A stretch of 24,000 bases of DNA from Methanosarcinales archaeon (GCA_905339155.1 CAJPFJ010000068.1:1-24000), one strand, 5' to 3'; positions 2,810-23,096 are shown, counted from the stretch's first letter. The notes: a model not told the origin generated them from the sequence alone. Made by a program: numbers and translations.

Positions 2810-4693
2810 ATGAGTTATGGGTATAATAAAATGACATATAGAATCCTTTGTATCTTTTTACTGATCTTGACAATAAATGGTGTTTTTGCACTCGAAGAAG
2901 GTGTTTCGGTTCCTCTTGTTGCTGACCGGAGCACAGGTGATGGGGAAGAAGGGGTCCTACTTGGTGCGGAGGTAATTGTCACAAACGGCACGGGCCATGT
3001 ATTCGTGGATACTAATCCATACACACAGGTTGATCTTCAGGGTTCGGCAAGAATCGCAGCGATGGTCGCATCTGATGTACTGGGTGTTGATGAAAAGGTA
3101 TATGATTTCTATTATATTATCGATATAAGTTCACCTATCATCGGCGGGCCCTCGGCAGGTGGAGCTTTGACGGTGGCAACCATTGCTTCCATTCAAAAAT
3201 GGCCTTTGAAAAGTGATGTTGTAATGACAGGGATGATAAATCCCGACGGATCAATAGGACCTGTGGGTGGAATACCATTCAAGCTTGAGGCTGCAGCAGA
3301 AAAAAACGCCACGCTTTTCTTGATACCAGAGGGCCAGAGTATAGTAACAGTGAAAAATACCTCCTCCCGATTAAGAGGCACACTGATAGTCATTGAAGAA
3401 AAAGAGGAATCGGTGGATGTTGTAGAACTCGGGAAAAAACTCAATGTCACAGTTAAAGAAGTAAATACGATCCAGGATGTTGTCCTGGAATTTACAGGTC
3501 ATGAGATAACTAAGCCTGCATATGAGGGCTCAATTCTGACATCTGAATATATGGATCTTCTAAAACCTCTTGCCCAGAACCTGAAAGGCGAATCGGGAAA
3601 TATGTACAGGGAAATGGAATCAAAGATGCCTAAAACCCAGTTCACAGAGACTGCAAAAGATATCCTGGACAGGGCGGATAAGATGTATGATGATAAGAAA
3701 TACTATGCTGCGACCTCCTTATATTTTAATTCAATGTACACGATGCGCTTTGTTGAATGGAAGGACGGATATGATAAAGCATCAGATAAAGAACAATATC
3801 TTAACGAGATCGTAAGAAGGGTAGAGAAACAGATAAAGTCCTCTGAGACTGACCTTGAAAACTTTACATTGTACGGAGTAAGTGATGTGGAAGCAGTAGG
3901 GGCTGCCGAATCAAGGATCACAACTGCCAGGATTGGACTTGATGAAGCAGCAAAATTAAATGATACAGAGGAAAAGATATCATCGCTAGCCTTTGCTAAT
4001 GAGAGGGCGCGCACGGCACAATGGTGGCTTACACTTGCAACACCTGATGGAAATATCGTACCTGAAAAAACATTGAAAGACCGCGCTGGATGGTATTTGA
4101 GCCAGGCGCAATCCATCAATACCTATATGATAACACTTATTTCAGAAAGCGGTTCGCATCCGGATATCTCAGGAGGCGCTGGTGAAGACATAATTCATGC
4201 CCAGAAGGAAATGGAACGAGGATATTATGCAGGCTCAATATTTGATTCGCTCCAGGCCACTATAAAATCCACCACCTCGATAGGGTTGTTGGGTAAAACA
4301 GATTCGCAAAAGAAAGTTAATGAGAGTTACGAAGCAGCAAAAGTTGCGATAAACGAGGCCCGCATGATGGGAATTGAACCAACTCTTGCTGTCAGTGCGT
4401 ATGAGTATGGGGAAACGATGACAAATCCATATGAAAAGATATCCCAATATTCTTATGCAAAGATGATCGCAAAGACCTCCATTGTGCTAAAATCACATTC
4501 CATTCCTTCAAATCAATCACCTGTTAAACCGGTCATCACTCCTTATGTATCTGAACCATTTGAGCCTTTGGCGCCAGAGCCTAATGTTACCGGGAAAATA
4601 TCAAAGACAAAAATACAAGTGCCGGGTTTTGAAGCCGTTATGGCTATATCGATATTGCTGGTCGCAAGGAGGTTATATAAGAAAATAAAATAA
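2810..4693 (+). CDS. Secreted S16-family (Lon protease-domain) serine peptidase with a C-terminal PGF-CTERM archaeal sorting signal
   Basis: The Lon proteolytic-domain catalytic motif IIGGPSAGG has its Ser codon at 3152-3154. The Lys-containing GGIPFKLEAAAEKNATLFLIPEG lies ~45 aa downstream. The N-terminal signal peptide is MTYRILCIFLLILTINGVFA/LEEG, so the true start may be the ATG at 2831. The C-terminus has a Pro/Ser/Thr-rich linker followed by PGFEAVMAISILLVARRLYKKIK (4622-4690), which matches the PGF + hydrophobic + basic tail pattern. Confidence 0.8.
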   Translation: MSYGYNKMTYRILCIFLLILTINGVFALEEGVSVPLVADRSTGDGEEGVLLGAEVIVTNGTGHVFVDTNPYTQVDLQGSARIAAMVASDVLGVDEKVYDFYYIIDISSPIIGGPSAGGALTVATIASIQKWPLKSDVVMTGMINPDGSIGPVGGIPFKLEAAAEKNATLFLIPEGQSIVTVKNTSSRLRGTLIVIEEKEESVDVVELGKKLNVTVKEVNTIQDVVLEFTGHEITKPAYEGSILTSEYMDLLKPLAQNLKGESGNMYREMESKMPKTQFTETAKDILDRADKMYDDKKYYAATSLYFNSMYTMRFVEWKDGYDKASDKEQYLNEIVRRVEKQIKSSETDLENFTLYGVSDVEAVGAAESRITTARIGLDEAAKLNDTEEKISSLAFANERARTAQWWLTLATPDGNIVPEKTLKDRAGWYLSQAQSINTYMITLISESGSHPDISGGAGEDIIHAQKEMERGYYAGSIFDSLQATIKSTTSIGLLGKTDSQKKVNESYEAAKVAINEARMMGIEPTLAVSAYEYGETMTNPYEKISQYSYAKMIAKTSIVLKSHSIPSNQSPVKPVITPYVSEPFEPLAPEPNVTGKISKTKIQVPGFEAVMAISILLVARRLYKKIK

Positions 4694-4755
4694 AAGGGGA
4701 AAAAACTTGTGAATTCTATCCTTGCCATGTCTGCCCAAAGCAGATGCTTAAAGAA

Positions 4756-5094
4756 TTATAACATTATGTTTCCTTTTTTTACGATCTGCAAAATCTCAGG
4801 TCTAGATTCACAGCAAGAACTGCCGCAACCGCACGTTACTTCCTTCTGCCCTTTTACAGCAGCCCATATCATCGCAGATGCGCATCCAACGCCGTTGTCT
4901 ACTTTGATAGCGTTTGTTGGACAGTTGAGCTGACAGGCTCCGCATTCCATGCATGCTTTTGGGTTCACTAATTGCGCTGCCTTTCCACTCGTACTGAATA
5001 CACCATGAGGACATACAGTACTGCACATTCCACAGTTAATACACAATTCCGGATCGTATTTAAGAGTGTTTGAATCATACGAATTAAACATCAT
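4756..5094 (-). CDS. hgcB: HgcB, the 2x[4Fe-4S] ferredoxin of the mercury methylation pair
   Basis: Taken from the internal ATG at 5094 (MMFNSYDSNT...), 112 aa. It has two CxxCxxCxxxCP motifs, CINCGMCSTVCP and CMECGACQLNCP; the second contains the HgcB-typical CMECGA. The tail is Cys-rich with a vicinal pair (CGCGSSCC). The start overlaps the hgcA stop as ATGA. The track's longer 183-aa form would overlap hgcA by 200+ nt. Confidence 0.85.
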   Translation of the reverse strand: MMFNSYDSNTLKYDPELCINCGMCSTVCPHGVFSTSGKAAQLVNPKACMECGACQLNCPTNAIKVDNGVGCASAMIWAAVKGQKEVTCGCGSSCCESRPEILQIVKKGNIML

Positions 5095-6104
5095 ATTCCT
5101 CCAAATATTTTCATTAATGATAACGCAATTACCAGGATAATACCGATCCCGAACATCCAGGCCATTGTTGGAACATATGTAAATATTTCGCGCTTTACCC
5201 CTATCACTGAGGTAAAAGTTGTAGAACCTGTAAAGTTCAGTGCCAAAAAGGCAGTTACAGGCGGCATGGTCAGCATATAAGTCAATGCCCAACCTGAACG
5301 CAACCACAGGGCTTCATTCATCATGCCATAAAACACGTTCATGGCAAACGGTAGCGCCATCAGTCCGCCTATAATGAATCCCTTTGTACTGAAATCTTTT
5401 GTTGGGATCCAGGGCAGCAGGATTGGAAATAACACCACTCCTGACAGGATGGCTGTAATGGCAGCCGCTGCCGCTATATATCCTCCAAAAAGTGAAAGGA
5501 TTAAGGATGCGATCAACCCGGGTATCAGGATCGAGTTCATCTCAACAGGTATAAGGACAATTCGGTCAGGGAGAGTAAAGCGAACGCGGCGCATTTCTTC
5601 TGTTGCCTGGTGGGTTTTAAGATACGCTGGAAGATCAGATGCTCTCACTGGCCCGAACTCGACTTTGAATCCTGAACGCTTCCTGACCTCCTGGGCAGAT
5701 ACTCCCGTTGCGGCAAGTTGTGGAACAATAAGTATTCTGTGGCTGACTATATCATGAAGTTTTACTGCTTCGATGCGTCGTACCATCTCATCAGTTCCAA
5801 ATGTGCCTTTACCCGCAGCGCACCATACATTAATGCCTCTGGTGTCAAGAACGAGAATATAGGCATCAATACCAGCCAATGCTGATCTTAGGGCATCAAA
5901 ACTGAGGGTATAATTTGCACTGGCAAATACTGGTGAATCTTTTGTAGGTTTTCCTATGGCGTATAGCCCGGATGCTATTGAATGCTCGCTTCGTTTTACT
6001 CCAAGACGGGCCAGAAAATGGTCCAGATGATTGGCAAGTGTTATGTCGCTGGAAGTGGATTTAATATCAATTTCTTTTGTTATTGTTTCAGGTGGATTTT
6101 TCAA
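5091..6104 (-). CDS. hgcA: HgcA, the corrinoid protein of the mercury methylation pair
   Basis: 337 aa. The exact cap-helix signature INVWCAAGKGTF lies at 5808-5831, with the Cys codon at 5820-5822. A C-terminal domain follows with several hydrophobic helices (LIPGLIASLILSLFGGYIAAAAAITAILSGVVLFPILLPWIP...). The TTG start at 6104 is preceded by AAGGAG 6 nt upstream. Confidence 0.9.
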   Translation of the reverse strand: MKNPPETITKEIDIKSTSSDITLANHLDHFLARLGVKRSEHSIASGLYAIGKPTKDSPVFASANYTLSFDALRSALAGIDAYILVLDTRGINVWCAAGKGTFGTDEMVRRIEAVKLHDIVSHRILIVPQLAATGVSAQEVRKRSGFKVEFGPVRASDLPAYLKTHQATEEMRRVRFTLPDRIVLIPVEMNSILIPGLIASLILSLFGGYIAAAAAITAILSGVVLFPILLPWIPTKDFSTKGFIIGGLMALPFAMNVFYGMMNEALWLRSGWALTYMLTMPPVTAFLALNFTGSTTFTSVIGVKREIFTYVPTMAWMFGIGIILVIALSLMKIFGGI

Positions 6105-6156
6105 TTATACTCCTTCTCTTTGAGATTTCCTTCTTCAACCAATATTTTAAATTCTT

Positions 6157-6432
6157 TTATCTCTCCAGTATATCCTTCATCACCGGACCAAGCATACCTT
6201 TTACCATCCCTTCGAGTTTCTCGACCTTGATTAAGGATATACAGCATACTTCGCCGTCCTTTTCCCAGCTTACAACAGCCAGCTTATCACCGGCATGAAT
6301 ATTTGCTTTTTCTCTTATCTCTTTGGGAAGCACCATCTGCCCCCTGTCATCTACAGTTATCACGGATTCAACCTTGCAGCAACCCAGATCGGCAGGAGCA
6401 CAGCATGATTTGTTTTCATCTTTCTTTGCCAT
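6157..6432 (-). CDS. Small AbrB/SpoVT-fold (looped-hinge helix) protein with three vicinal Cys-Cys pairs
   Basis: Taken from the internal ATG at 6432, giving 91 aa: MAKKDENKSCCAPADLGCCKVESVITVDDRGQMVLPKEIREKANIHAGDKLAVVSWEKDGEVCCISLIKVEK.... VDDRGQMVLPKEIREKANIHAGDKLAV matches the AbrB-family pattern VDskGRivIPkeiReklgikeGDkl. The CC pairs are at residues 10-11, 18-19 and 63-64. A TTTAAATA box lies ~35 nt upstream of this ATG. The stop is 52 nt upstream of hgcA on the same strand. Confidence 0.7.
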   Translation of the reverse strand: MAKKDENKSCCAPADLGCCKVESVITVDDRGQMVLPKEIREKANIHAGDKLAVVSWEKDGEVCCISLIKVEKLEGMVKGMLGPVMKDILER

Positions 6433-6466
6433 TTTTATCACTTTTGTGGCAACTATGTATTCTGAA

Positions 6467-6474
6467 TATTTAAA
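6467..6474 (-). promoter_or_regulatory. Candidate archaeal TATA box for the AbrB-like/hgcAB transcription unit
   Basis: The minus strand reads AAAGTTTAAATATTCA, with TTTAAATA at 6474..6467. Its 3' edge is 35 nt from the ATG at 6432, which fits a short 5' UTR. This is motif-only evidence. Confidence 0.3.
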
Positions 6475-6525
6475 CTTTTCTGAATAATCAGAATAAGCTG
6501 AAAAAAGAATTTGTTTAAAAAGCTG

Positions 6526-6606
6526 GTCAATCTCCGGTATTTTTCCGAAATGAAGGAAAGGAAAATCTGTTGTCAGGCGCTGGTTTGGGGGAAGACGGGA
6601 CATCAT
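6526..6606 (-). pseudogene. 5' remnant (first ~26 codons) of a molybdopterin oxidoreductase gene; copy A of a 78-nt direct repeat
   Basis: Minus strand 6603..6526 aligns without gaps to 12309..12232, the 5' end of the intact gene. By hand alignment 71 of 78 positions are identical, including a 35-nt perfect core CGTCTTCCCCCAAACCAGCGCCTGACAACAGATTT. The encoded peptide is MSRLPPNQRLTTDFPFLHFGKIPEID versus MPRLPPNQRLTTDFPVLHFGKVPEFD. Similarity ends abruptly after codon 26. The frame happens to stay open into the AbrB-like gene, which produces the track's 149-aa ORF. Confidence 0.55.
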
Positions 6607-7059
6607 TTAACTTTTTTTTCTATGACCGAAAAGAAATGATATAGGGGATTTGAAGCCCTTAAGAAGCCTGGGCACCTCTGCATGTCCTGTCTGTTTTACA
6701 AGATTCGGAAGCTCATTCAACCTCGGTTTTCTTTGTAGCTGCAAAACCTCAAAATCCTGGATTTCACCGGTTTCATTTTTTATCTCTGAAAAAGTGACAT
6801 TTTTCACAATATCAGCCTTTTTTTCCTTTGCCTCACTGGGCTTGTCCCTGCTAGCTTTGCCTTTGATTTTACCATCCTGATAATAGCTTTCCGGCGATTT
6901 TATACCAAGTTTGCGGGCATTCTCCACAAGAGTGTTATATTCCCTTAATACCCAGCCAATTTCAGAGTGACTTTTGACCCCCACTTCAAAGCCAAGCTCA
7001 TATATTTTCTTTATTAGTTCAGCCCTCTCCTTTTCCATATTTGTATTGGTAATACCCAA
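6607..7059 (-). CDS. Hypothetical protein, small partner ORF downstream of the KaiC-like ATPase
   Basis: 150-aa ORF beginning 12 nt after the KaiC-like stop. The TTG start at 7059 is preceded by AGGGGGG; an alternative ATG lies at 7038. The N-terminal half looks helical, followed by a Lys/Glu-rich linker (SRDKPSEAKEKKAD). I recognise no family motif. Confidence 0.5.
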   Translation of the reverse strand: MGITNTNMEKERAELIKKIYELGFEVGVKSHSEIGWVLREYNTLVENARKLGIKSPESYYQDGKIKGKASRDKPSEAKEKKADIVKNVTFSEIKNETGEIQDFEVLQLQRKPRLNELPNLVKQTGHAEVPRLLKGFKSPISFLFGHRKKS

Positions 7060-7071
7060 AACCCCCCTGGT

Positions 7072-7824
7072 TTACTTCTTGAGCAGCTTTCCAACTTTTA
7101 TGCCCTTATCTGAAAATTCAATGGCTCGCATCTCGCAGTCATGCTTTGTCCCGCGCATTTTAATGATCTGTAAGCCTCGGACCATACTTCCCTGCTTGTC
7201 CATGAAATTATGCAGGAATATCACACCATGCGATGCGAATTGTTCTATGGTATAAGCATCTGGATTTGTAAGTTCGGAGAGCAGTATAGTTGTACATCCT
7301 AGAGTTTTCAGGTTGCGGATGAACCTGCTAATGGAACGCTCTTCCGATGCTATGTCCTTTGAGGCGAACCTGATCGAAGACAATGAGTCGATCACCAATC
7401 TCTTAATACCGAACTGTTTGATCTGGTTTTCCACTTCTTTAAATACGGAAAATGGGGTGGGTGGTTGATTCACAAGGGAGTCGCCAGATTGCTGAACATA
7501 ATCCGGAGTAATAAGACTTGACATCTCATCATATTCTCCATAATTTATAGTCGGACCAAGATCTATAAAGAACAATTTTTTCGTCTTGATCATATCATCG
7601 ATCTGTGGATTATATCGTAACATATCTTCTACAAGGGTGCCGATATTTTCGGATAATGCAACGTATGCTCCTATCTCGCCTAAAAGCGCCCCTGCTGCAA
7701 GAAATTGGACGCCAAAAGTACTCTTGCCACTGCCCGGAGTGCCGCTCAACAAGTACTGCCTTCCCTGTAATAATCCTCCCTCAACCAGCGTATCAAATCC
7801 TTCAATCCCTGATTTTATTCTCAT
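7072..7824 (-). CDS. KaiC/RecA-superfamily single-domain ATPase (archaeal KaiC-like)
   Basis: 250 aa. The N-terminus GIEGFDTLVEGGLLQGRQYLLSGTPGSGKSTFGVQFL carries the Walker A motif GTPGSGKST. The Walker B-like strand is KRLVIDSLSS. The C-terminal LQIIKMRGTKHDCEMRAIEFSDKGIKV is typical of KaiC-like proteins. Confidence 0.8.
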   Translation of the reverse strand: MRIKSGIEGFDTLVEGGLLQGRQYLLSGTPGSGKSTFGVQFLAAGALLGEIGAYVALSENIGTLVEDMLRYNPQIDDMIKTKKLFFIDLGPTINYGEYDEMSSLITPDYVQQSGDSLVNQPPTPFSVFKEVENQIKQFGIKRLVIDSLSSIRFASKDIASEERSISRFIRNLKTLGCTTILLSELTNPDAYTIEQFASHGVIFLHNFMDKQGSMVRGLQIIKMRGTKHDCEMRAIEFSDKGIKVGKLLKK

Positions 7825-7955
7825 AATCTACCTCATAATTGCGGTTATTGGTGTTATAATTTTTTGAATATATATATGCATTGAAAAATGATTGGATTTA
7901 AGATGATTATTCTTGTTTTTTCTACTTTGAAATTGTCATGTTAAACTTTCCAATA

Positions 7956-8594
7956 TCATTCTTTATCAGCAGTTTGTTTCTTTTGAAAATCAATATCCTT
8001 TAATGACTCGGACGATGTAGTTGATTTTTCAAACCTGTGAACCTCTTCGATAGTATCATTAATTGATTCAAGAAGTATATCCTGGTCACTCTTGAGACCG
8101 GAGATCCCCCATTCACATGAATTTTTTATTGTTCTAATCGCTGATTTCATTGGTTTCCTTCGTGATTCATATTCTCCAAAACTTGTTAATAATGCTGATC
8201 TTTCAAGCATATATATATTCTCCCTGAATTTTTTTAATTGTAGTATAAAAAGTGTATTTTCTCTAACATTCGTAAGTAGGTTCTTGTCAGCATCAGAAAT
8301 ATTTCTAACATTGCATAAAGTATTAATTTTTAAATTTAAATTTTCAAAATTTACATTTTCATTTGTAGTAAACTCAATATAGATTTCGCCAGCACTTTTA
8401 ATTACATTTGAAATAGGTTTATATAGCTCTGTTTTTGAATAGTCCAGGAAGAACTTCGCCTTTATTGATAAAGGCAAGAGTCTGAAAGAAGAAGCTGATA
8501 TAAATGAAGAGGATGTTGATTCGTTTTTCAAAGCAATATTCTTGCGTAATATTGATTTAAAAATTAAATTATCTTTAGAGTCCATGGAAACCAC
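7956..8594 (-). CDS. Hypothetical protein (AT-rich orphan ORF)
   Basis: 212-aa ORF on the same strand as its neighbours, 43 nt downstream of the response regulator. It is rich in Asn/Lys/Ser/Ile and has no recognisable motif. Local composition is markedly AT-rich: a hand count of 8221-8280 gives 16 G+C out of 60. Confidence 0.4.
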   Translation of the reverse strand: MVSMDSKDNLIFKSILRKNIALKNESTSSSFISASSFRLLPLSIKAKFFLDYSKTELYKPISNVIKSAGEIYIEFTTNENVNFENLNLKINTLCNVRNISDADKNLLTNVRENTLFILQLKKFRENIYMLERSALLTSFGEYESRRKPMKSAIRTIKNSCEWGISGLKSDQDILLESINDTIEEVHRFEKSTTSSESLKDIDFQKKQTADKE

Positions 8595-8637
8595 AATTCT
8601 TACCTCTGCACAATTTCATCACCAAAATCTAACGCGT

Positions 8638-9438
8638 TCATGGATCCCTCTCAAAAATATCCGAGAAAACCATTACAATACCAATTATACTATCTCCGTC
8701 AATTTTGATGCTTGAGCCCATAATATCGACAGGTATTTTCAAACCTTCCTTTGTTATTAATACCGTATGCTCAGATAGACCGTAGAACATGTCTTCTTCA
8801 ATTGCTTTTGTTACAAGATCCACTATTTGTTCCCCGGTTTCTTCGCCAATAATATTGAAGACACCTGCCAGAGGTTTTCCTATAGCATCCTTCTGATTCC
8901 AACCTGTTAGTGCCTCTGCGATCGGATTCATGAGTCTTATCATTCCTTCCGGATCTGTAGCGATCACTGCGTCACCTATGCCCCCAATTACTGAAGAAAG
9001 CCATTGGTTTTTCTCTCTCAAACTCTTTTCACTCTCTTTTAACATCTTCTCCATTTTGTTTTTATAGAAAGCAATTTCAAGATTTATCTGTAATTCCCTG
9101 TCTTTAAATGGTTTTATTAAGTATGCATAAGGCTCAGTGATTTTTGCCCTTTCAAGTGTCTTATTATCCGCATATGCAGTGAGATATATTACTGGTATAT
9201 CGGAAAAAGAATGAATTTTTGATGCAGCTTCAATCCCATCCATTTTGCCATACAGGTTTATATCCATTAAGACAAGGTCGGGATTATTTTCTTTTGTCTT
9301 TTTGATAGCCTCTTCCCCGGAAGATACTATTACGGGAACAGCATATCCCATTGCCTTTAATTTTCTCTGTAATCCTTCAGCAATAAGTATTTCATCTTCA
9401 ACAACAAGTATCTGTTTTTCGTCCGACATTTTATTCAC
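8638..9438 (-). CDS. Response regulator: CheY-like receiver domain + PAS domain
   Basis: The receiver domain reads ILVVEDEILIAEGLQRKLKAMGY...PDLVLMDINLYGKMDGIEAASKI...IPVIYLTAYAD...IKPF (acidic pocket, phospho-acceptor D in LMDI, conserved T and K). A PAS-like region follows (GDAVIATDPEGMIRLMNPIAEALTGWNQKDAIGKPL). It has no DNA-binding output domain. Its start overlaps the kinase stop by 8 nt. Confidence 0.85.
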   Translation of the reverse strand: MNKMSDEKQILVVEDEILIAEGLQRKLKAMGYAVPVIVSSGEEAIKKTKENNPDLVLMDINLYGKMDGIEAASKIHSFSDIPVIYLTAYADNKTLERAKITEPYAYLIKPFKDRELQINLEIAFYKNKMEKMLKESEKSLREKNQWLSSVIGGIGDAVIATDPEGMIRLMNPIAEALTGWNQKDAIGKPLAGVFNIIGEETGEQIVDLVTKAIEEDMFYGLSEHTVLITKEGLKIPVDIMGSSIKIDGDSIIGIVMVFSDIFERDP

Positions 9439-11572
9439 CTTTAAAATTAATTTGAAATTCTGTTCCTCTTTCCCTATTTAAAGTGATCTCCCCATGAAGC
9501 TGATTTTCAGAAAGCGTGTAGATTAGATGCATGCCCAATGATTTCGTATTTCGAGTATCCATATCCCCTGGAATGCCTATACCATCATCACTTACTGAAA
9601 AATAGATCATATTACCATCCATTTTTTGAAATATAATTTTAATTTTGCCGTGTCTATCTTTAGGAAATGCGTATTTTAATGAATTAGTAATAAGTTCATT
9701 TAGTATCAATCCGCATGGGACTGCATAATTAATATTCAGTGGAATATTATCAACGTTAATTTCTAATTCTGCATTGCCTTTAGTCCCATAAGAACCCATC
9801 AAGTTGGAAGCAAGATCGTTAATGTACTCCTGGATATTAATTTGTGCAAGGTTCTCGGATTGGTAGAATTTTTCATGAATAAGGGCCATAGAAAGTATCC
9901 GGTTATTACTATCATTAAAAATATCAAGATACTTTTGATCAACAATATTCTGGGACTGAAGAAGGAGAAGACTGGAAATAATCTGCATATTGTTTTTTAC
10001 GCGATGATGAATTTCCCGCAGAAGCGTTTCTTTCTCGTGGAGAGAGTCTTGAATTAGCTTCTCAGACTTCTTGCGCTCGGTTATGTCCCGTGATACATGA
10101 ATTACACTTACGACCTTTCCATTTTCATCCCCTATGGGGGATGTTGAAACCTCAAAATATCGCTTTTCTTCCCCCTTATTATAGTGAACAAGCTCAGAAG
10201 TTGAATTTGTACCTGTCTTCAAAGTTTCAATAAGAGGGCAGATATCAATCGGAGGGGCACATGGTTCAGCACAATTATGGATAATCTCGTGGCAGGTTTT
10301 TCCAATCACTTCATCTTTCTTCATCTCATAATTACCCAGGAAAACTGAATTTGCATCGATTATCCTGAAATTATTGACATCAATGACAGAAATAGCGTCG
10401 TTCATACTGTTGAGCACGGTTTCAGTGAATTCCTTTGATCTAATAAGTAAATCCTCTGCTTTCTTTCGTTGCGAGATATCATGGATAATGAACGACAGGC
10501 CGGTTAATTTATTATTTAAATCCAGCAATTGGGATATTGTCAAACTCACAAATATCCTGGTACCAGTCTCATGTATATGCACAGTTTCAATTCCGGAAGC
10601 CGATTGACCCAGAAGGAATAGGTCAGAAAGTTTTTTTCCCATTACATTTCCCACTTCCCATCCAAAAAGTTTCTCTGCACTGTGGTTCCATGATGTAACA
10701 AAATCTTGAAGGTCAGTTGTAATGATTGCATCGTTTGCATTATCAAATAGATTACGGTATTTATTCTCTGCCCCTATGCGAAGCTTTTCCTCCGCCAGAG
10801 CCAGCTTTTCATAGGGTAGATCTACGGATGATTTATACAGGCCAAGATGAAAATAGAAAAAACCAGTGATTATAAGAAAATGCCCTGAGATTTCATAAAA
10901 GAAGTAAACCAGATTACTGAGAAGTATGATGAGAGGACCGTATATTAAAAAATGCAGGTCATCCTGCCCGGTTTCTTTGGCTCTTTTTGCATAAAGATAG
11001 CATGCAACTAAAATAATAATTGTAATAACAAGTAATAATAATGCAGTTGTCGTGGAATAACCATCAATGTTATTTGATGCAAGAAAATCTTCACGAAATA
11101 ATCCGGAAGCCAGGAAGACAGATAATATTGTTATCATGAACAAAACTATGACACGTTTGTTGATCAATTTAGGAAGTGAATCTTTATGCACAAATACACT
11201 GGCAAGGATTAAAACAGCCAGGACGAATCGGGATTCAAGAAAGAAAATCGCTGATTTATGGGCGGAGTTGGGGTTGATGAAATCGGGCATAAAAGGATAG
11301 GAAAGTAAATGAAATAGAATTAAAAGTCCAGTTATACAAAAAGTTGCACCCAGAAAAAGAGAATGTCGATCCCGGCTTTTACTATATGCATACCACGTTA
11401 AGCCAAATATTGAAAGAGCAACGAAAACAGAGAATAATTCGGATATGATCTCAAAAGTTTCTTCCAGTGATTTAGAGACATTTGATTTTGATGAATCTAT
11501 CGTTTCTTGAAGGAAAACTCCTATCAGGAAAACCGACACAATTATTGCTAATAATTTATATTCATCTTTCAA
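9431..11572 (-). CDS. Membrane sensor histidine kinase: polytopic N-terminal sensor (MASE3-like), two PAS domains, HisKA_2 and HATPase_c
   Basis: 713 aa. About 7 hydrophobic helices span the first 245 aa, including LFHLLSYPFMPDF. PAS1 contains NANDAIITTDLQDFVTSWNHSAEKLFGW. PAS2 contains NSMNDAISVIDVNNFRIIDAN and a 4-Cys insert. The HisKA_2 H-box is LLREIHHRVKNNMQIISSLLLLQ. The ATPase N and G boxes are LNELITNSLKYAF and DDGIGIP. Confidence 0.85.
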   Translation of the reverse strand: MKDEYKLLAIIVSVFLIGVFLQETIDSSKSNVSKSLEETFEIISELFSVFVALSIFGLTWYAYSKSRDRHSLFLGATFCITGLLILFHLLSYPFMPDFINPNSAHKSAIFFLESRFVLAVLILASVFVHKDSLPKLINKRVIVLFMITILSVFLASGLFREDFLASNNIDGYSTTTALLLLVITIIILVACYLYAKRAKETGQDDLHFLIYGPLIILLSNLVYFFYEISGHFLIITGFFYFHLGLYKSSVDLPYEKLALAEEKLRIGAENKYRNLFDNANDAIITTDLQDFVTSWNHSAEKLFGWEVGNVMGKKLSDLFLLGQSASGIETVHIHETGTRIFVSLTISQLLDLNNKLTGLSFIIHDISQRKKAEDLLIRSKEFTETVLNSMNDAISVIDVNNFRIIDANSVFLGNYEMKKDEVIGKTCHEIIHNCAEPCAPPIDICPLIETLKTGTNSTSELVHYNKGEEKRYFEVSTSPIGDENGKVVSVIHVSRDITERKKSEKLIQDSLHEKETLLREIHHRVKNNMQIISSLLLLQSQNIVDQKYLDIFNDSNNRILSMALIHEKFYQSENLAQINIQEYINDLASNLMGSYGTKGNAELEINVDNIPLNINYAVPCGLILNELITNSLKYAFPKDRHGKIKIIFQKMDGNMIYFSVSDDGIGIPGDMDTRNTKSLGMHLIYTLSENQLHGEITLNRERGTEFQINFKGE

Positions 11573-11751: not shown

Positions 11752-12309
11752 TTAATACGAATATCTCTCCTCTTTCCACGGATCTGCGCTGTCACTGTAT
11801 CCCCTCTGTTCCCAGAAGCCCAACTCCTTTTCTTCTGTGAATATAACTCTTCTAACCCATTTTGCGCTCTTGTATGCGTATTTTTTCGGAACGACAAGCC
11901 GAAGCGGCCCGCCATGTAACGGTTCAAGGGGCTTTCCCTCAAAATTATATGCAAAAATGACATCAGGCTCCATGAGTTCGGCAAGCTCCATGCTTGTGGT
12001 GTATCCGCCGTCAGCCTCTATCGTGGCGAACCGGGCATTGCTTTTTGGTCTTACAAGTTTTGCCAGGTCACTGAATCGAATGCCCTCCCATTTATTTTCA
12101 AACCGGCTCCATCCGGTCACACAATGAAAGTCGCTTACATCAACTGTTTTTTCAAGAGCGAGCAATTCATCGTATGTCAGCCTGATGGGATTTTCAACAA
12201 GCCCTTCAACACGGAAATCCCAGGTTTTGCTGTCGAATTCCGGTACTTTTCCGAAATGAAGGACAGGGAAATCTGTTGTCAGGCGCTGGTTTGGGGGAAG
12301 ACGGGGCAT
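11752..12309 (-). CDS. Sulfite-oxidase-family molybdopterin-binding oxidoreductase (small YedY/MsrP-like catalytic domain)
   Basis: 185 aa. FHCVTGWS contains the Mo-ligand Cys motif of the oxidoreductase molybdopterin-binding domain. HGGPLRLVVP..YAYKSAKWV is also characteristic. Its first 78 nt are copy B of the direct repeat. Confidence 0.8.
   Translation of the reverse strand: MPRLPPNQRLTTDFPVLHFGKVPEFDSKTWDFRVEGLVENPIRLTYDELLALEKTVDVSDFHCVTGWSRFENKWEGIRFSDLAKLVRPKSNARFATIEADGGYTTSMELAELMEPDVIFAYNFEGKPLEPLHGGPLRLVVPKKYAYKSAKWVRRVIFTEEKELGFWEQRGYSDSADPWKEERYSY
12232..12309 (-). repeat. Copy B of the 78-nt direct repeat (5' end of the intact Moco oxidoreductase gene)
   Basis: See 6526-6606. 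Both copies have the same orientation and their starts are 5706 nt apart. Confidence 0.9.
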
Positions 12310-21757: not shown

Positions 21758-22086
21758 CTTGTCCTGTGAGGGATAAGGTAACAGGTTGACAAGGAGGCTT
21801 AGGTAAAACTATGCAGAAGTTGGAAAGAAGAAATATATACACACCTACGGGCATTCCGCACACTCGTGGCAACTGTGATCTGTCATTAAATGTAGAGGAA
21901 ACTCTCTGTGTGGCAGGTTTAAAAACATTTTCCAACAACTCCGATGCGGCTCTAACTGGTTTAGGAGAGAGTTCCAGAGCAAAACCTGCGGGTACTTGCT
22001 ACAAAAACCATCTCAACCTATTAAACAATAGAATACGAAGGCAGAGGCGTTATCCTGCAACTACTAACGCAAGGGTACGCTTCCTT

Positions 22087-22105
22087 CCTGCCCTAAAGAG
22101 CAGGG
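22087..22105. repeat. Hairpin repeat R2 (CCTGCCCTAAAGAGCAGGG)
   Basis: An exact second copy 348 nt downstream of R1. It ends 28 nt before the idsA ATG at 22134. Confidence 0.9.
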
Positions 22106-22133
22106 TATCCGCTACCTCTTGACCCCAACGATT

Positions 22134-23096
22134 ATGATCGAAGAGATCCTCCAAAAAAAAGCTAAATTGGTTGACGAATCTATCCCCAAATTCCTTCCAA
22201 TTACTCCGCCGGATGAATTATATAAAGCCATGCGCCATCTTCTTGATGCCGGAGGAAAGAGACTTCGTCCATCCGCATTGTTGCTGGCATCCGAAGCGGT
22301 GGGGGGAAAGCCCGAAGATGTTCTTCCTGCGGCAATAGCTGTTGAACTTGTACATAATTTTACACTGATACATGATGATATCATGGACGAGGCGGATTTA
22401 AGGAGGGGACTTACAACGGTTCATAAGAAATGGGGTGTTCCGAGGGCGATCATCGCAGGGGATGCCCTCTATTCAAAGGCTTTTGAGATACTTTCATGTA
22501 CAAAAAGCGAACCACAAAGACTTGTTGAAAGTCTTGAGCTATTGTCAAAGACATGCACTGATATATGCGAAGGCCAGTGGATGGATATGAATTTCCAGAC
22601 ACGCAAGGATGTTAATGAAGAAGAGTATATGCGCATGGTCGAGAAAAAAACCGCTGTACTTTTTGCATCAGCACTAAAATTAGGAGCAATGTTATCCGGA
22701 GCAAACCGTGAGCATGTCAGGGCTTTATGGGATTTTGGCAGGCTGACCGGTGTGGGATTCCAGATATATGATGATGTGATTGATCTTATCACCCCGGAGG
22801 AAGTACTTGGAAAAGCGCAGGGTGGGGACATAATGGAAGGAAAACGTACTCTTATCATCATCCATGCGCTTTCAAAAGGAGTAAGTATTGATGCTCTTGG
22901 GAAATGCAATGCAACCAGAAGCGAGATTTCCGCAGCTCTTATTACACTTCAAAAATCAGGTTCCATCGATTACGCTATGAACAAGGCGCTCGGTTTTGTG
23001 GATCAGGGCAAAGCCGCACTTGCTGTGCTTCCGGATTCAGAGGCAAAGAAGACCCTTATTGAACTTGCTGATTATATGATCGAGCGGAAGTATTAG
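22134..23096 (+). CDS. idsA: Geranylgeranyl diphosphate synthase (short-chain trans-prenyl diphosphate synthase)
   Basis: The first Asp-rich motif is LIHDDIMDEADLRRG and the second is FQIYDDVIDL. GKRLRP is also conserved. I prefer the ATG at 22134 (MIEEILQKK...) over the track's TTG at 22119. Confidence 0.88.
   Translation: MIEEILQKKAKLVDESIPKFLPITPPDELYKAMRHLLDAGGKRLRPSALLLASEAVGGKPEDVLPAAIAVELVHNFTLIHDDIMDEADLRRGLTTVHKKWGVPRAIIAGDALYSKAFEILSCTKSEPQRLVESLELLSKTCTDICEGQWMDMNFQTRKDVNEEEYMRMVEKKTAVLFASALKLGAMLSGANREHVRALWDFGRLTGVGFQIYDDVIDLITPEEVLGKAQGGDIMEGKRTLIIIHALSKGVSIDALGKCNATRSEISAALITLQKSGSIDYAMNKALGFVDQGKAALAVLPDSEAKKTLIELADYMIERKY

Follow-up and report, generated by a model that had tools for sequence, protein, structure and literature searches.

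In an archaeon of the genus Candidatus Methanoperedens, the mercury-methylation genes hgcA and hgcB are preceded by a small gene, hgcC, whose product is on balance probably an autoregulated repressor of hgcC-hgcA-hgcB that is released from its promoter by a thiophilic metal or metalloid. The gene lies on the minus strand of a 24,000-nucleotide (nt) stretch of a contig catalogued as Methanosarcinales archaeon (GCA_905339155.1, CAJPFJ010000068.1:1-24000; the whole stretch is hereafter the window) at positions 6157-6432, with its ATG at 6432-6430 and its stop codon ending at 6157. Translation from 6432 to 6157 yields a cysteine-rich protein of 91 amino acids (aa) with an AbrB/SpoVT-type fold, MAKKDENKSCCAPADLGCCKVESVITVDDRGQMVLPKEIREKANIHAGDKLAVVSWEKDGEVCCISLIKVEKLEGMVKGMLGPVMKDILER. 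Mercury biogeochemistry has yet to settle how hgcAB is controlled and which purpose HgcAB truly serves, and methylmercury production is poorly predicted by gene abundance. HgcC would represent a second family of regulators, unrelated to ArsR, that ties hgcAB to arsenic genes, and a defined operator together with three candidate thiols makes the control of hgcAB directly testable, the bacterial promoters of the family looking compatible with σ70.

One operator in two promoter architectures

The evidence that carries most weight is a short DNA motif upstream of the gene, which was compared across related loci. A genome scan restricted to one genome per species confirmed at least 421 relatives of hgcC, and the best 80 of these loci supply the promoter set, the neighbourhood census and the tree discussed below. 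A preliminary description made from the window's sequence had credited hgcC with a TATA-like box of its own, and rightly so: the box, TTTAAATA, is found on the minus strand at 6474-6467, approximately 35-42 nt before the ATG, and is conserved, in the form TTAAATA, across an alignment of 21 archaeal promoters. Four half-sites of a putative operator surround it on the same strand. The first, TTCAGC (6497-6502), is a degenerate form of the consensus ATCAGA in the 21-promoter alignment and stands 9 nt upstream of the second; the second and third, TTCTGAT (6487-6493) and TTCAGAA (6478-6484), form the left and right arms of a palindrome, the right arm abutting a purine-rich stretch directly upstream of the TATA box, at the position expected for a B recognition element; and the fourth, TTCAGAA (6460-6466), follows directly 3' of the TATA box, before the expected transcription start. 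The palindrome, TCTGAT-TA-TTCAGA (6492-6479), is unique in the window. A Shine-Dalgarno-like GTGAT (6437-6441, minus strand) ends 4 nt before the ATG, and the Shine-Dalgarno-like string (G)GTGATAAAATG recurs in three related loci (L001, L003 and L089).

Across the family, ATCAGA or its complement TCTGAT is present in 71 of 79 upstream regions against an expectation of 9.2, and AATCAGAA in 38 of the 79 against 1.7. The 21 archaeal promoters share the consensus aTCAGa.TaTTCtGATTTaTCAGAAAAg.TTAAATAcTCaGAa, in which the palindrome abuts the TATA box, a half-site lies 9 nt further upstream and another comes directly after the TATA box. The 50 bacterial promoters are built around a −35 box (cTTGACAa) and a −10 box (tataat), with two to four half-sites laid over the −10/start region, their cores spaced by 8, 9 and 10 nt in 23, 34 and 38 cases respectively. 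A strict rule, demanding at least three half-sites that are 8-11 or 18-20 nt apart, recovered 52 clusters from 806 kb of fetched loci, every one of them directly upstream of an HgcC-type gene; the 24 kb of the window hold exactly one, at 6460-6492. One half-site is common to bacteria and archaea and is fitted to two promoter architectures. Because it is conserved in both, binding of HgcC to DNA is well supported by comparative sequence evidence and autoregulation is likely, and because the sites sit over the core promoter, the binding is likely to repress. The motif could also mark other operons that answer to the same signal.

The mechanism that we envisage begins with a swapped-hairpin HgcC that presumably dimerises, with higher oligomers possible through its C-terminal helix (residues 70-89), and that would bind three or four (A/T)TCAGA(A/T) half-sites, 9-10 nt apart, along one face of the DNA. 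Bound in this way, the archaeal protein would bracket the TATA box and block TBP/TFB, and the bacterial protein would lie across both the −10 box and the start of transcription and so block RNA polymerase. Ligation of a metal(loid) by C19, C63 and C64, perhaps assisted by the variable, cysteine-rich and disordered N-terminal tail, would then release the promoter.

Partners of the putative regulator

The company that hgcC keeps is restricted. Archaeal hosts among the 80 loci comprise Methanoperedens, Methanothrix, Bathyarchaeia, Thermoplasmata and Promethearchaeota; bacterial hosts comprise Nitrospirota, Chloroflexi/Dehalococcoidales, Syntrophales and other Deltaproteobacteria, Aminicenantes, Zixibacteria, Gemmatimonadota and Actinomycetota. 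Directly downstream and on the same strand, arsM is found in 57 loci (called by NF008823, for example at 366.5 bits against a cut-off of 263), hgcA with hgcB in 21, and the end of the contig in 2. A metal(loid)-methylation gene therefore follows in 78 of 78 assessable loci across both domains of life, and any other gene in none. The preliminary description had proposed such a gene-neighbourhood census around hgcAB: the linkage it suspected is real (21/78), although its focus on hgcAB was too narrow, given arsM in 57/78. Its caveat that the linkage may not be specific to hgcAB was sound as to the non-specificity, the other partners being arsenic genes and not the generic permease or redox genes it had named.

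Six more distant members of the family were also sampled individually. Three of them precede arsM (P0262, 332.5 bits), a truncated arsM (P0263) and hgcA (P0219, 412.5 bits). A protein with 10 cysteines (P0185, L083:2487-3970) is followed by a weakly ArsC-like low-molecular-weight phosphatase and an MIP channel; it carries four CC pairs in its tail, the phosphatase scores 40 bits on ArsC, below the cut-off, and the layout resembles an arsC-aqpS arsenic operon. A protein with two cysteines (P0240) is an orphan with no partner gene downstream. The sole cysteine-less member of the six (P0207, L082:211-2516) overlaps by 4 nt the gene of a 675-aa protein that has no NCBIfam match and for which no Pfam hit was recorded.

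Within a neighbour-joining tree of the 73-residue core, arsM and hgcAB contexts are mixed: there are eight parsimony switches of context, where shuffled labels need 19.4 on average and never fewer than 14. The nearest genome relative of the window's HgcC in this tree is an arsM-linked Methanoperedens protein, and pairwise comparison finds two arsM-linked Methanoperedens proteins that are 84% and 80% identical to it. Either acr3 or a strong arsM match occurs within 6 kb of 3 of the 21 hgcAB-linked loci (L053, L069 and L078) and also in L089; neither is present near hgcAB in the window. Such nearby arsenic genes support the arsenic link modestly.

Apparent exchange between arsenic and mercury methylation

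Comparisons at the DNA level suggest that regulator and promoter travel together. The mobile cassette of promoter, hgcC, hgcA and hgcB (4761-6521, minus strand) has 87% DNA identity with locus L089 by blastn, and the promoter and hgcC alone (6154-6501, approximately 350 bp) are 85.7% identical to a Methanoperedens arsM operon, L001, in which homology extends no further than the hgcC stop codon and the next gene is arsM. Locus L089 holds both modules in tandem (L089:6150-9671 and 9719-11193): an operator, a truncated 61-aa hgcC' and arsM (367 bits); then a nitroreductase/BluB-like gene, a second operator, hgcC, hgcA and hgcB; and, on the opposite strand, acr3 (449 bits) and arsR. A single intact regulator presumably serves both promoters of L089. 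With 72 bits, the nitroreductase/BluB-like gene falls short of the cut-off of the BluB model; it may have some bearing on the corrinoid that HgcA uses.

The same promoter and regulator module is joined to arsM in most genomes, and to hgcAB in roughly one in four; the methylation of arsenic and that of mercury thus look like interchangeable outputs of a common sensing device. A bolder generalisation, which we advance tentatively and regard as a good deal less probable than the repressor model itself, is that HgcC typifies an unrecognised class of As(III)/Hg(II)-sensing AbrB-fold repressors in both domains of life, that this class is a main regulator of arsM in anaerobes, and that its module has repeatedly swapped arsM for hgcAB. 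If so, hgcAB would be a physiological output of an arsenic or metalloid stress response, and the native function of HgcAB may be corrinoid-dependent methylation or detoxification of metal(loid)s, with mercury methylation as a side reaction.

The protein, its fold and its family

The AbrB-type fold claimed in the preliminary description is borne out by profile searches, in which HgcC passes the cut-offs of both Pfam PF04014, a family named MazE_antitoxin (33.4 bits, cut-off 24.7), and the AbrB family TIGR01439 (44.1 bits, cut-off 28.3); the AbrB-type motif quoted there is present at residues 27-53. An AlphaFold2 (AF2) monomer model has a mean predicted local distance difference test (pLDDT) score of 81, with a disordered tail (residues 1-19), a core at pLDDT 94-96 (21-70) and a C-terminal helix (70-89); the CC pair at residues 63-64 falls inside the last β-strand of the core. 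Foldseek returns SpoVT, the AbrB N-domain, C68 and Sso7c4 as the best matches in the PDB (top entries 2w1t, 2ro5, 3o27, 5itm and 1yfb) at probabilities of 0.94-1.0, with E-values of only 0.04-0.1, the domain being short. As modelled, the core is a β-β-α-β-β swapped-hairpin fold like the solved N-domains of AbrB and SpoVT, and HgcC is presumably a homodimer, as is usual for the interleaved AbrB-type barrel. Four residues of the putative DNA-binding region (D28, G31, Q32 and R40) are invariant in a 76-sequence alignment (A1). With E ≤ 1e-3 the family divides into 3,943 clusters when grouped at 90% identity, or 471 when grouped at 50%, and among 150 representatives of the 50% clusters R30 (133/150) and K37 (144/150) are nearly invariant.

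NCBI's version of the window protein (P0001) is 149 aa long and named 'HgcAB-associated protein', and it is from the names in its protein cluster that the source is assigned to Candidatus Methanoperedens. Its start is wrong and lies too far upstream, because homologues measure 89-95 aa and the extension contains the promoter and a duplicated gene fragment. That fragment belongs to a 78-nt direct repeat, 91% identical between 6526-6603 and 12232-12309, which copies the first 26 codons of a molybdopterin-oxidoreductase gene (MsrP/YedY-like, PF00174, 12309→11752); the copy stands directly upstream of the cassette boundary at 6521, is the source of the false 149-aa start, and is probably the scar of a rearrangement or insertion.

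Novelty of the family, and of its place upstream of hgcAB, had also been suggested and did not survive: HgcC scores 125.3 bits (cut-off 70) on the curated NCBIfam model NF040962, 'HgcAB-associated protein HgcC' (near_HgcAB), residues 18-87 matching profile positions 1-70 of 70, and the protein already has a name at NCBI. What does stand is that a cysteine-rich AbrB-fold protein, experimentally uncharacterised, is placed to control hgcAB. According to Zhang et al. (2023; PMC10349881), an AbrB/PrlF/MazE-like gene lies directly upstream of hgcA on 14 hgcAB contigs and occurs in 8 of 31 confirmed methylators, six of them archaeal; it is proposed there as an archaeal regulator and discussed as toxin-antitoxin (TA)-related. 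McDaniel et al. (2020; PMC7438021) report that in 112 genomes hgcAB is directly preceded by a conserved 'putative transcriptional regulator'; its transcripts track those of hgcAB, and it probably belongs to the same family as HgcC. The portions of these two papers that were searched make no mention of cysteines, of an operator or of a predominant linkage to arsM. The family is known by name; the arsM linkage, the cross-domain operator and the triad of C19, C63 and C64 appear in no paper searched. Furthermore, the name of NF040962, a model typed as an 'equivalog', is too specific, because all 10 arsM-linked homologues tested pass the model (113-129 bits) and 57 of 78 family loci precede arsM. 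Automated pipelines consequently attach the label 'HgcAB-associated' to proteins that are linked to arsM, a possible source of error in methylator surveys.

Conserved cysteines and the likely ligand

Translation confirms the CC pairs earlier placed at residues 10-11, 18-19 and 63-64, and their clustering exceeds chance: three adjacent pairs from six randomly placed cysteines in 91 aa have a probability of 1.6e-4, and no CC dipeptide occurs in the 15 other long open reading frames (ORFs) of the window (4,900 aa, 1.0% Cys). Among the 150 representatives, C18 is kept in 79, C19 in 112, C63 in 109 and C64 in 122, and the 10-11 pair in only about a third. Cysteines of a pair are lost jointly (p = 1e-10 for 63/64 and 1e-7 for 18/19), C19 and C64 are both missing in just 1 of 135 representatives, and the N-terminal tail nearly always has extra cysteines, as CxC, CC, CCC or up to four CC pairs. 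For the 79 proteins of the surveyed loci the figures are 77/79 (C19), 75/79 (C63) and 78/79 (C64), alike in arsM and hgcAB contexts; the three residues are nearly invariant in both. Partner proteins carry similar motifs to differing extents: a CC falls within the first 70 residues in 49 of the 53 ArsM partners and in 9 of the 20 partners that are HgcA, the latter mainly bacterial proteins with N-terminal extensions. The motif in these partner N-termini is often SCCxP...SCC, as in the HgcC tail.

The ligand suggested by these comparisons is most likely As(III), with Hg(II) and methylated As(III) species as alternatives. As(III) is favoured because arsM is the dominant partner; because three thiolates make a classic As(III) site, as in ArsR, ArsD and ArsM; because, within lineages, proteins linked to hgcAB and those linked to arsM have the same cysteines and 77-84% identity; and because in P. 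mercurii ND132 the regulator of hgcAB, which is ArsR-like and unrelated to HgcC, answers to arsenic.

Weighing the repressor model

Several observations weigh against a metal(loid)-released repressor. Within the window alone the palindrome, allowing one mismatch, has 2 matches against 0.84 expected, a count reached in 21 of 100 shuffles, and TTCAGAA occurs 4 times against 5.7 expected; these statistics are weak, so that the operator draws its whole weight from comparison across loci, where coverage is limited to the best 80 of at least 421 loci. The arsM-linked protein of L001 (L001:6001-6273), 84% identical to HgcC, reads VYSISL for VCCISL and has lost both C63 and C64, and some family members have few or no cysteines, so that not every member can depend on the thiols. 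In the model, the side chains of C63 and C64 face opposite ways from their β-strand, and the pair may not chelate one ion; the model being a monomer, it leaves C19 unplaced relative to C63/C64 in a swapped-hairpin dimer. The literature searched contains no functional study of any HgcC-family member. Finally, HgcC is not a general regulator of hgcAB, because an hgcC gene lies directly upstream in only 18 of 66 assessable metagenomic hgcA loci (27%), in agreement with published fractions.

Two side observations touch on these points. L001 is a natural loss of C63/C64 in an otherwise intact module. Among the metagenomic hgcA loci, those whose HgcA is closest to the window's (L092-L112, 57-67% identity) lack an upstream hgcC wherever the region could be judged; gain or loss of the regulator has thus not followed the lineages of HgcA.

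The cysteines could alternatively serve delivery, with HgcC as a metallochaperone whose CC pairs hold Hg(II) or As(III) and pass it by thiol exchange to the cysteine-rich tails of HgcB, HgcA or ArsM, regulation being nil or secondary, on the pattern of ArsD and ArsA. A disordered N-terminal tail with a variable number of cysteines would suit such a role, as would similar CC motifs in the partners (the N-termini of ArsM and of bacterial HgcA and the CGCGSSCC tail of HgcB) and the resemblance of the HgcC tail, SCCxP...CC, to the ArsM N-terminus; ArsD itself, with three vicinal Cys pairs, represses weakly and also acts as a chaperone for As(III). A pure chaperone, however, leaves unexplained a DNA-binding fold with invariant loop residues and the promoter-specific operator of both domains of life; the orphan P0240 keeps its operator without a partner gene, and the truncated copy in L089 retains only the promoter and the N-terminal half. 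The preliminary description had wavered between sensor and chaperone. The conserved operator over the core promoter, and partners that handle thiophilic metal(loid)s, favour the regulator and make a pure chaperone an unlikely explanation, although a dual role as regulator and chaperone is possible.

A thiol-redox or Fe-S sensor would bind DNA exactly as the repressor model has it, with the cysteines reporting oxidative or disulfide stress or holding an Fe-S cluster, and we rate it as improbable as the chaperone. Conservation of the cysteines fits this idea, as do the strictly anaerobic life of the hosts and the sensitivity of HgcAB to oxygen. Cysteine-dependent control of an AbrB-type protein is moreover known from AbrB2 of Synechocystis (PMC4360819). 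Redox genes would then be expected as partners, whereas those of HgcC are almost exclusively arsenic and mercury genes (78/78). Nor, to our knowledge, are CC dipeptides typical Fe-S ligand motifs, which counts against a cluster.

A further reading follows the names given in KEGG, in Pfam and in part of the JGI annotation, and takes HgcC for a type II antitoxin of the PrlF/MazE kind and hgcAB for no more than the neighbour of a TA locus. It was considered and rejected as scarcely credible: the Pfam match is to a family named MazE_antitoxin, several homologues are 'antitoxin PrlF' at JGI and PMC10349881 treats the gene as TA-related, but there is no adjacent toxin gene, hgcA or arsM lying downstream in 78/78 loci and the upstream 150-aa ORF matching no family, and the TA-specific scores fall far under their cut-offs (PrlF NF007429, 16.1 bits against 125; MazE NF050106, 17.1 against 65; doc_partner, 17.7 against 55.9).

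The operon and its surroundings

The repressor would govern a compact operon. As first described, hgcC lies on the same strand as hgcA and ends 52 nt before it (stop end 6157, hgcA TTG 6104); the spacer (6105-6156, minus strand) has AAGGAG before the TTG and contains neither an operator half-site nor an oligo-T run, and the two genes are for this reason likely to be co-transcribed. The gap between regulator and partner in other loci is usually 14-50 nt. The corrinoid protein HgcA (5091-6104, minus strand; motif NVWCAAGK) scores 425.6 bits on NF040863 (cut-off 275), and HgcB (4756-5094, minus strand), a ferredoxin with two [4Fe-4S] clusters and the tail CGCGSSCC, scores 108.7 bits on NF040864 (cut-off 99); the hgcA stop codon, TGA (5093-5091), and the hgcB ATG, at 5094 or 5091, overlap. 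Oligo-T runs in the sequence after hgcB (4680-4705, minus strand) are likely to be the archaeal terminator of the operon. The spacer also includes a TATA-like TTTAAAATATT (6142-6152, minus strand), 38-48 nt before the hgcA TTG and without half-sites; the L089 spacer is AT-rich too, but differs in sequence from this region, and TTTAAAATATT was considered as a possible separate hgcA promoter.

Five genes occupy the minus strand between the copies of the 78-nt repeat (6607-11572): the 150-aa ORF upstream of hgcC, without a family match in Pfam or NCBIfam; a KaiC-like ATPase (PF06745, 155 bits); a 212-aa ORF; and, by eye, a response regulator-like protein of 266 aa and a large membrane histidine kinase of 713 aa. 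Farther away, and unrelated to hgcC, a HEARO RNA (Rfam RF02033; 21730-21956, plus strand; 91.7 bits, gathering score 83), of the kind associated with IscB/OMEGA-type HNH-endonuclease elements, adjoins ORFs at 21811-22122 and 22119-23096.

Comparison with known systems

Set beside its curated family, the window's hgcC adjoins hgcAB as the name of NF040962 implies, whereas the family at large fails to do so in 57 of 78 loci, where arsM takes the place of hgcAB; NF040962 itself has no function attached. The gene of PMC10349881 is framed there as archaeal and TA-related, whereas HgcC occurs here in many bacterial phyla and without a toxin partner.

In function, a parallel is ArsR/SmtB, whose genomic role is the same: a small, cysteine-containing protein that represses its own operon, be it ars, arsM or hgcAB, and is encoded at the head of it. 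The hgcAB genes of P. mercurii ND132 are under one such arsenic-responsive, ArsR-like repressor, ArsR2 (10.1101/2022.10.17.512643). ArsR/SmtB proteins are winged helices and HgcC a swapped-hairpin barrel, with no match to the winged-helix models PF01022 and NF033788 in the Pfam and NCBIfam scans; it would be a functional analogue and not a member of the family. For the cysteine-thiolate site through which As(III) releases ArsR/SmtB proteins, we infer a counterpart in the conserved candidate residues C19, C63 and C64. The likeness to ArsD is confined to vicinal-cysteine chemistry, three pairs that in ArsD are generally known to handle As(III)/Sb(III). The fold differs, the same scans gave no match to the ArsD family, and no arsA, the gene of the ATPase with which ArsD partners, stands beside hgcC in the window.

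In fold, HgcC belongs with AbrB, SpoVT and Sso7c4, having the same DNA-binding loop motifs, and phased, loosely palindromic sites would suit their manner of DNA recognition. Unlike AbrB and SpoVT, it has a cysteine-rich disordered tail, a CC pair in its last strand and a short C-terminal helix, and its tightly defined operator and one-operon regulon differ from the broad and degenerate regulon of AbrB. The AbrB-type repressor AbrB2 (CyAbrB) of Synechocystis depends on Cys34 for DNA binding and oligomerisation (PMC4360819), yet, unlike HgcC, it relies on a single glutathionylated cysteine, acts on hydrogenase and antioxidant genes and has no link to arsenic or mercury genes. Taken together, the arsM linkage, the operator and the cysteine triad define a testable metalloregulator variant on the AbrB scaffold.

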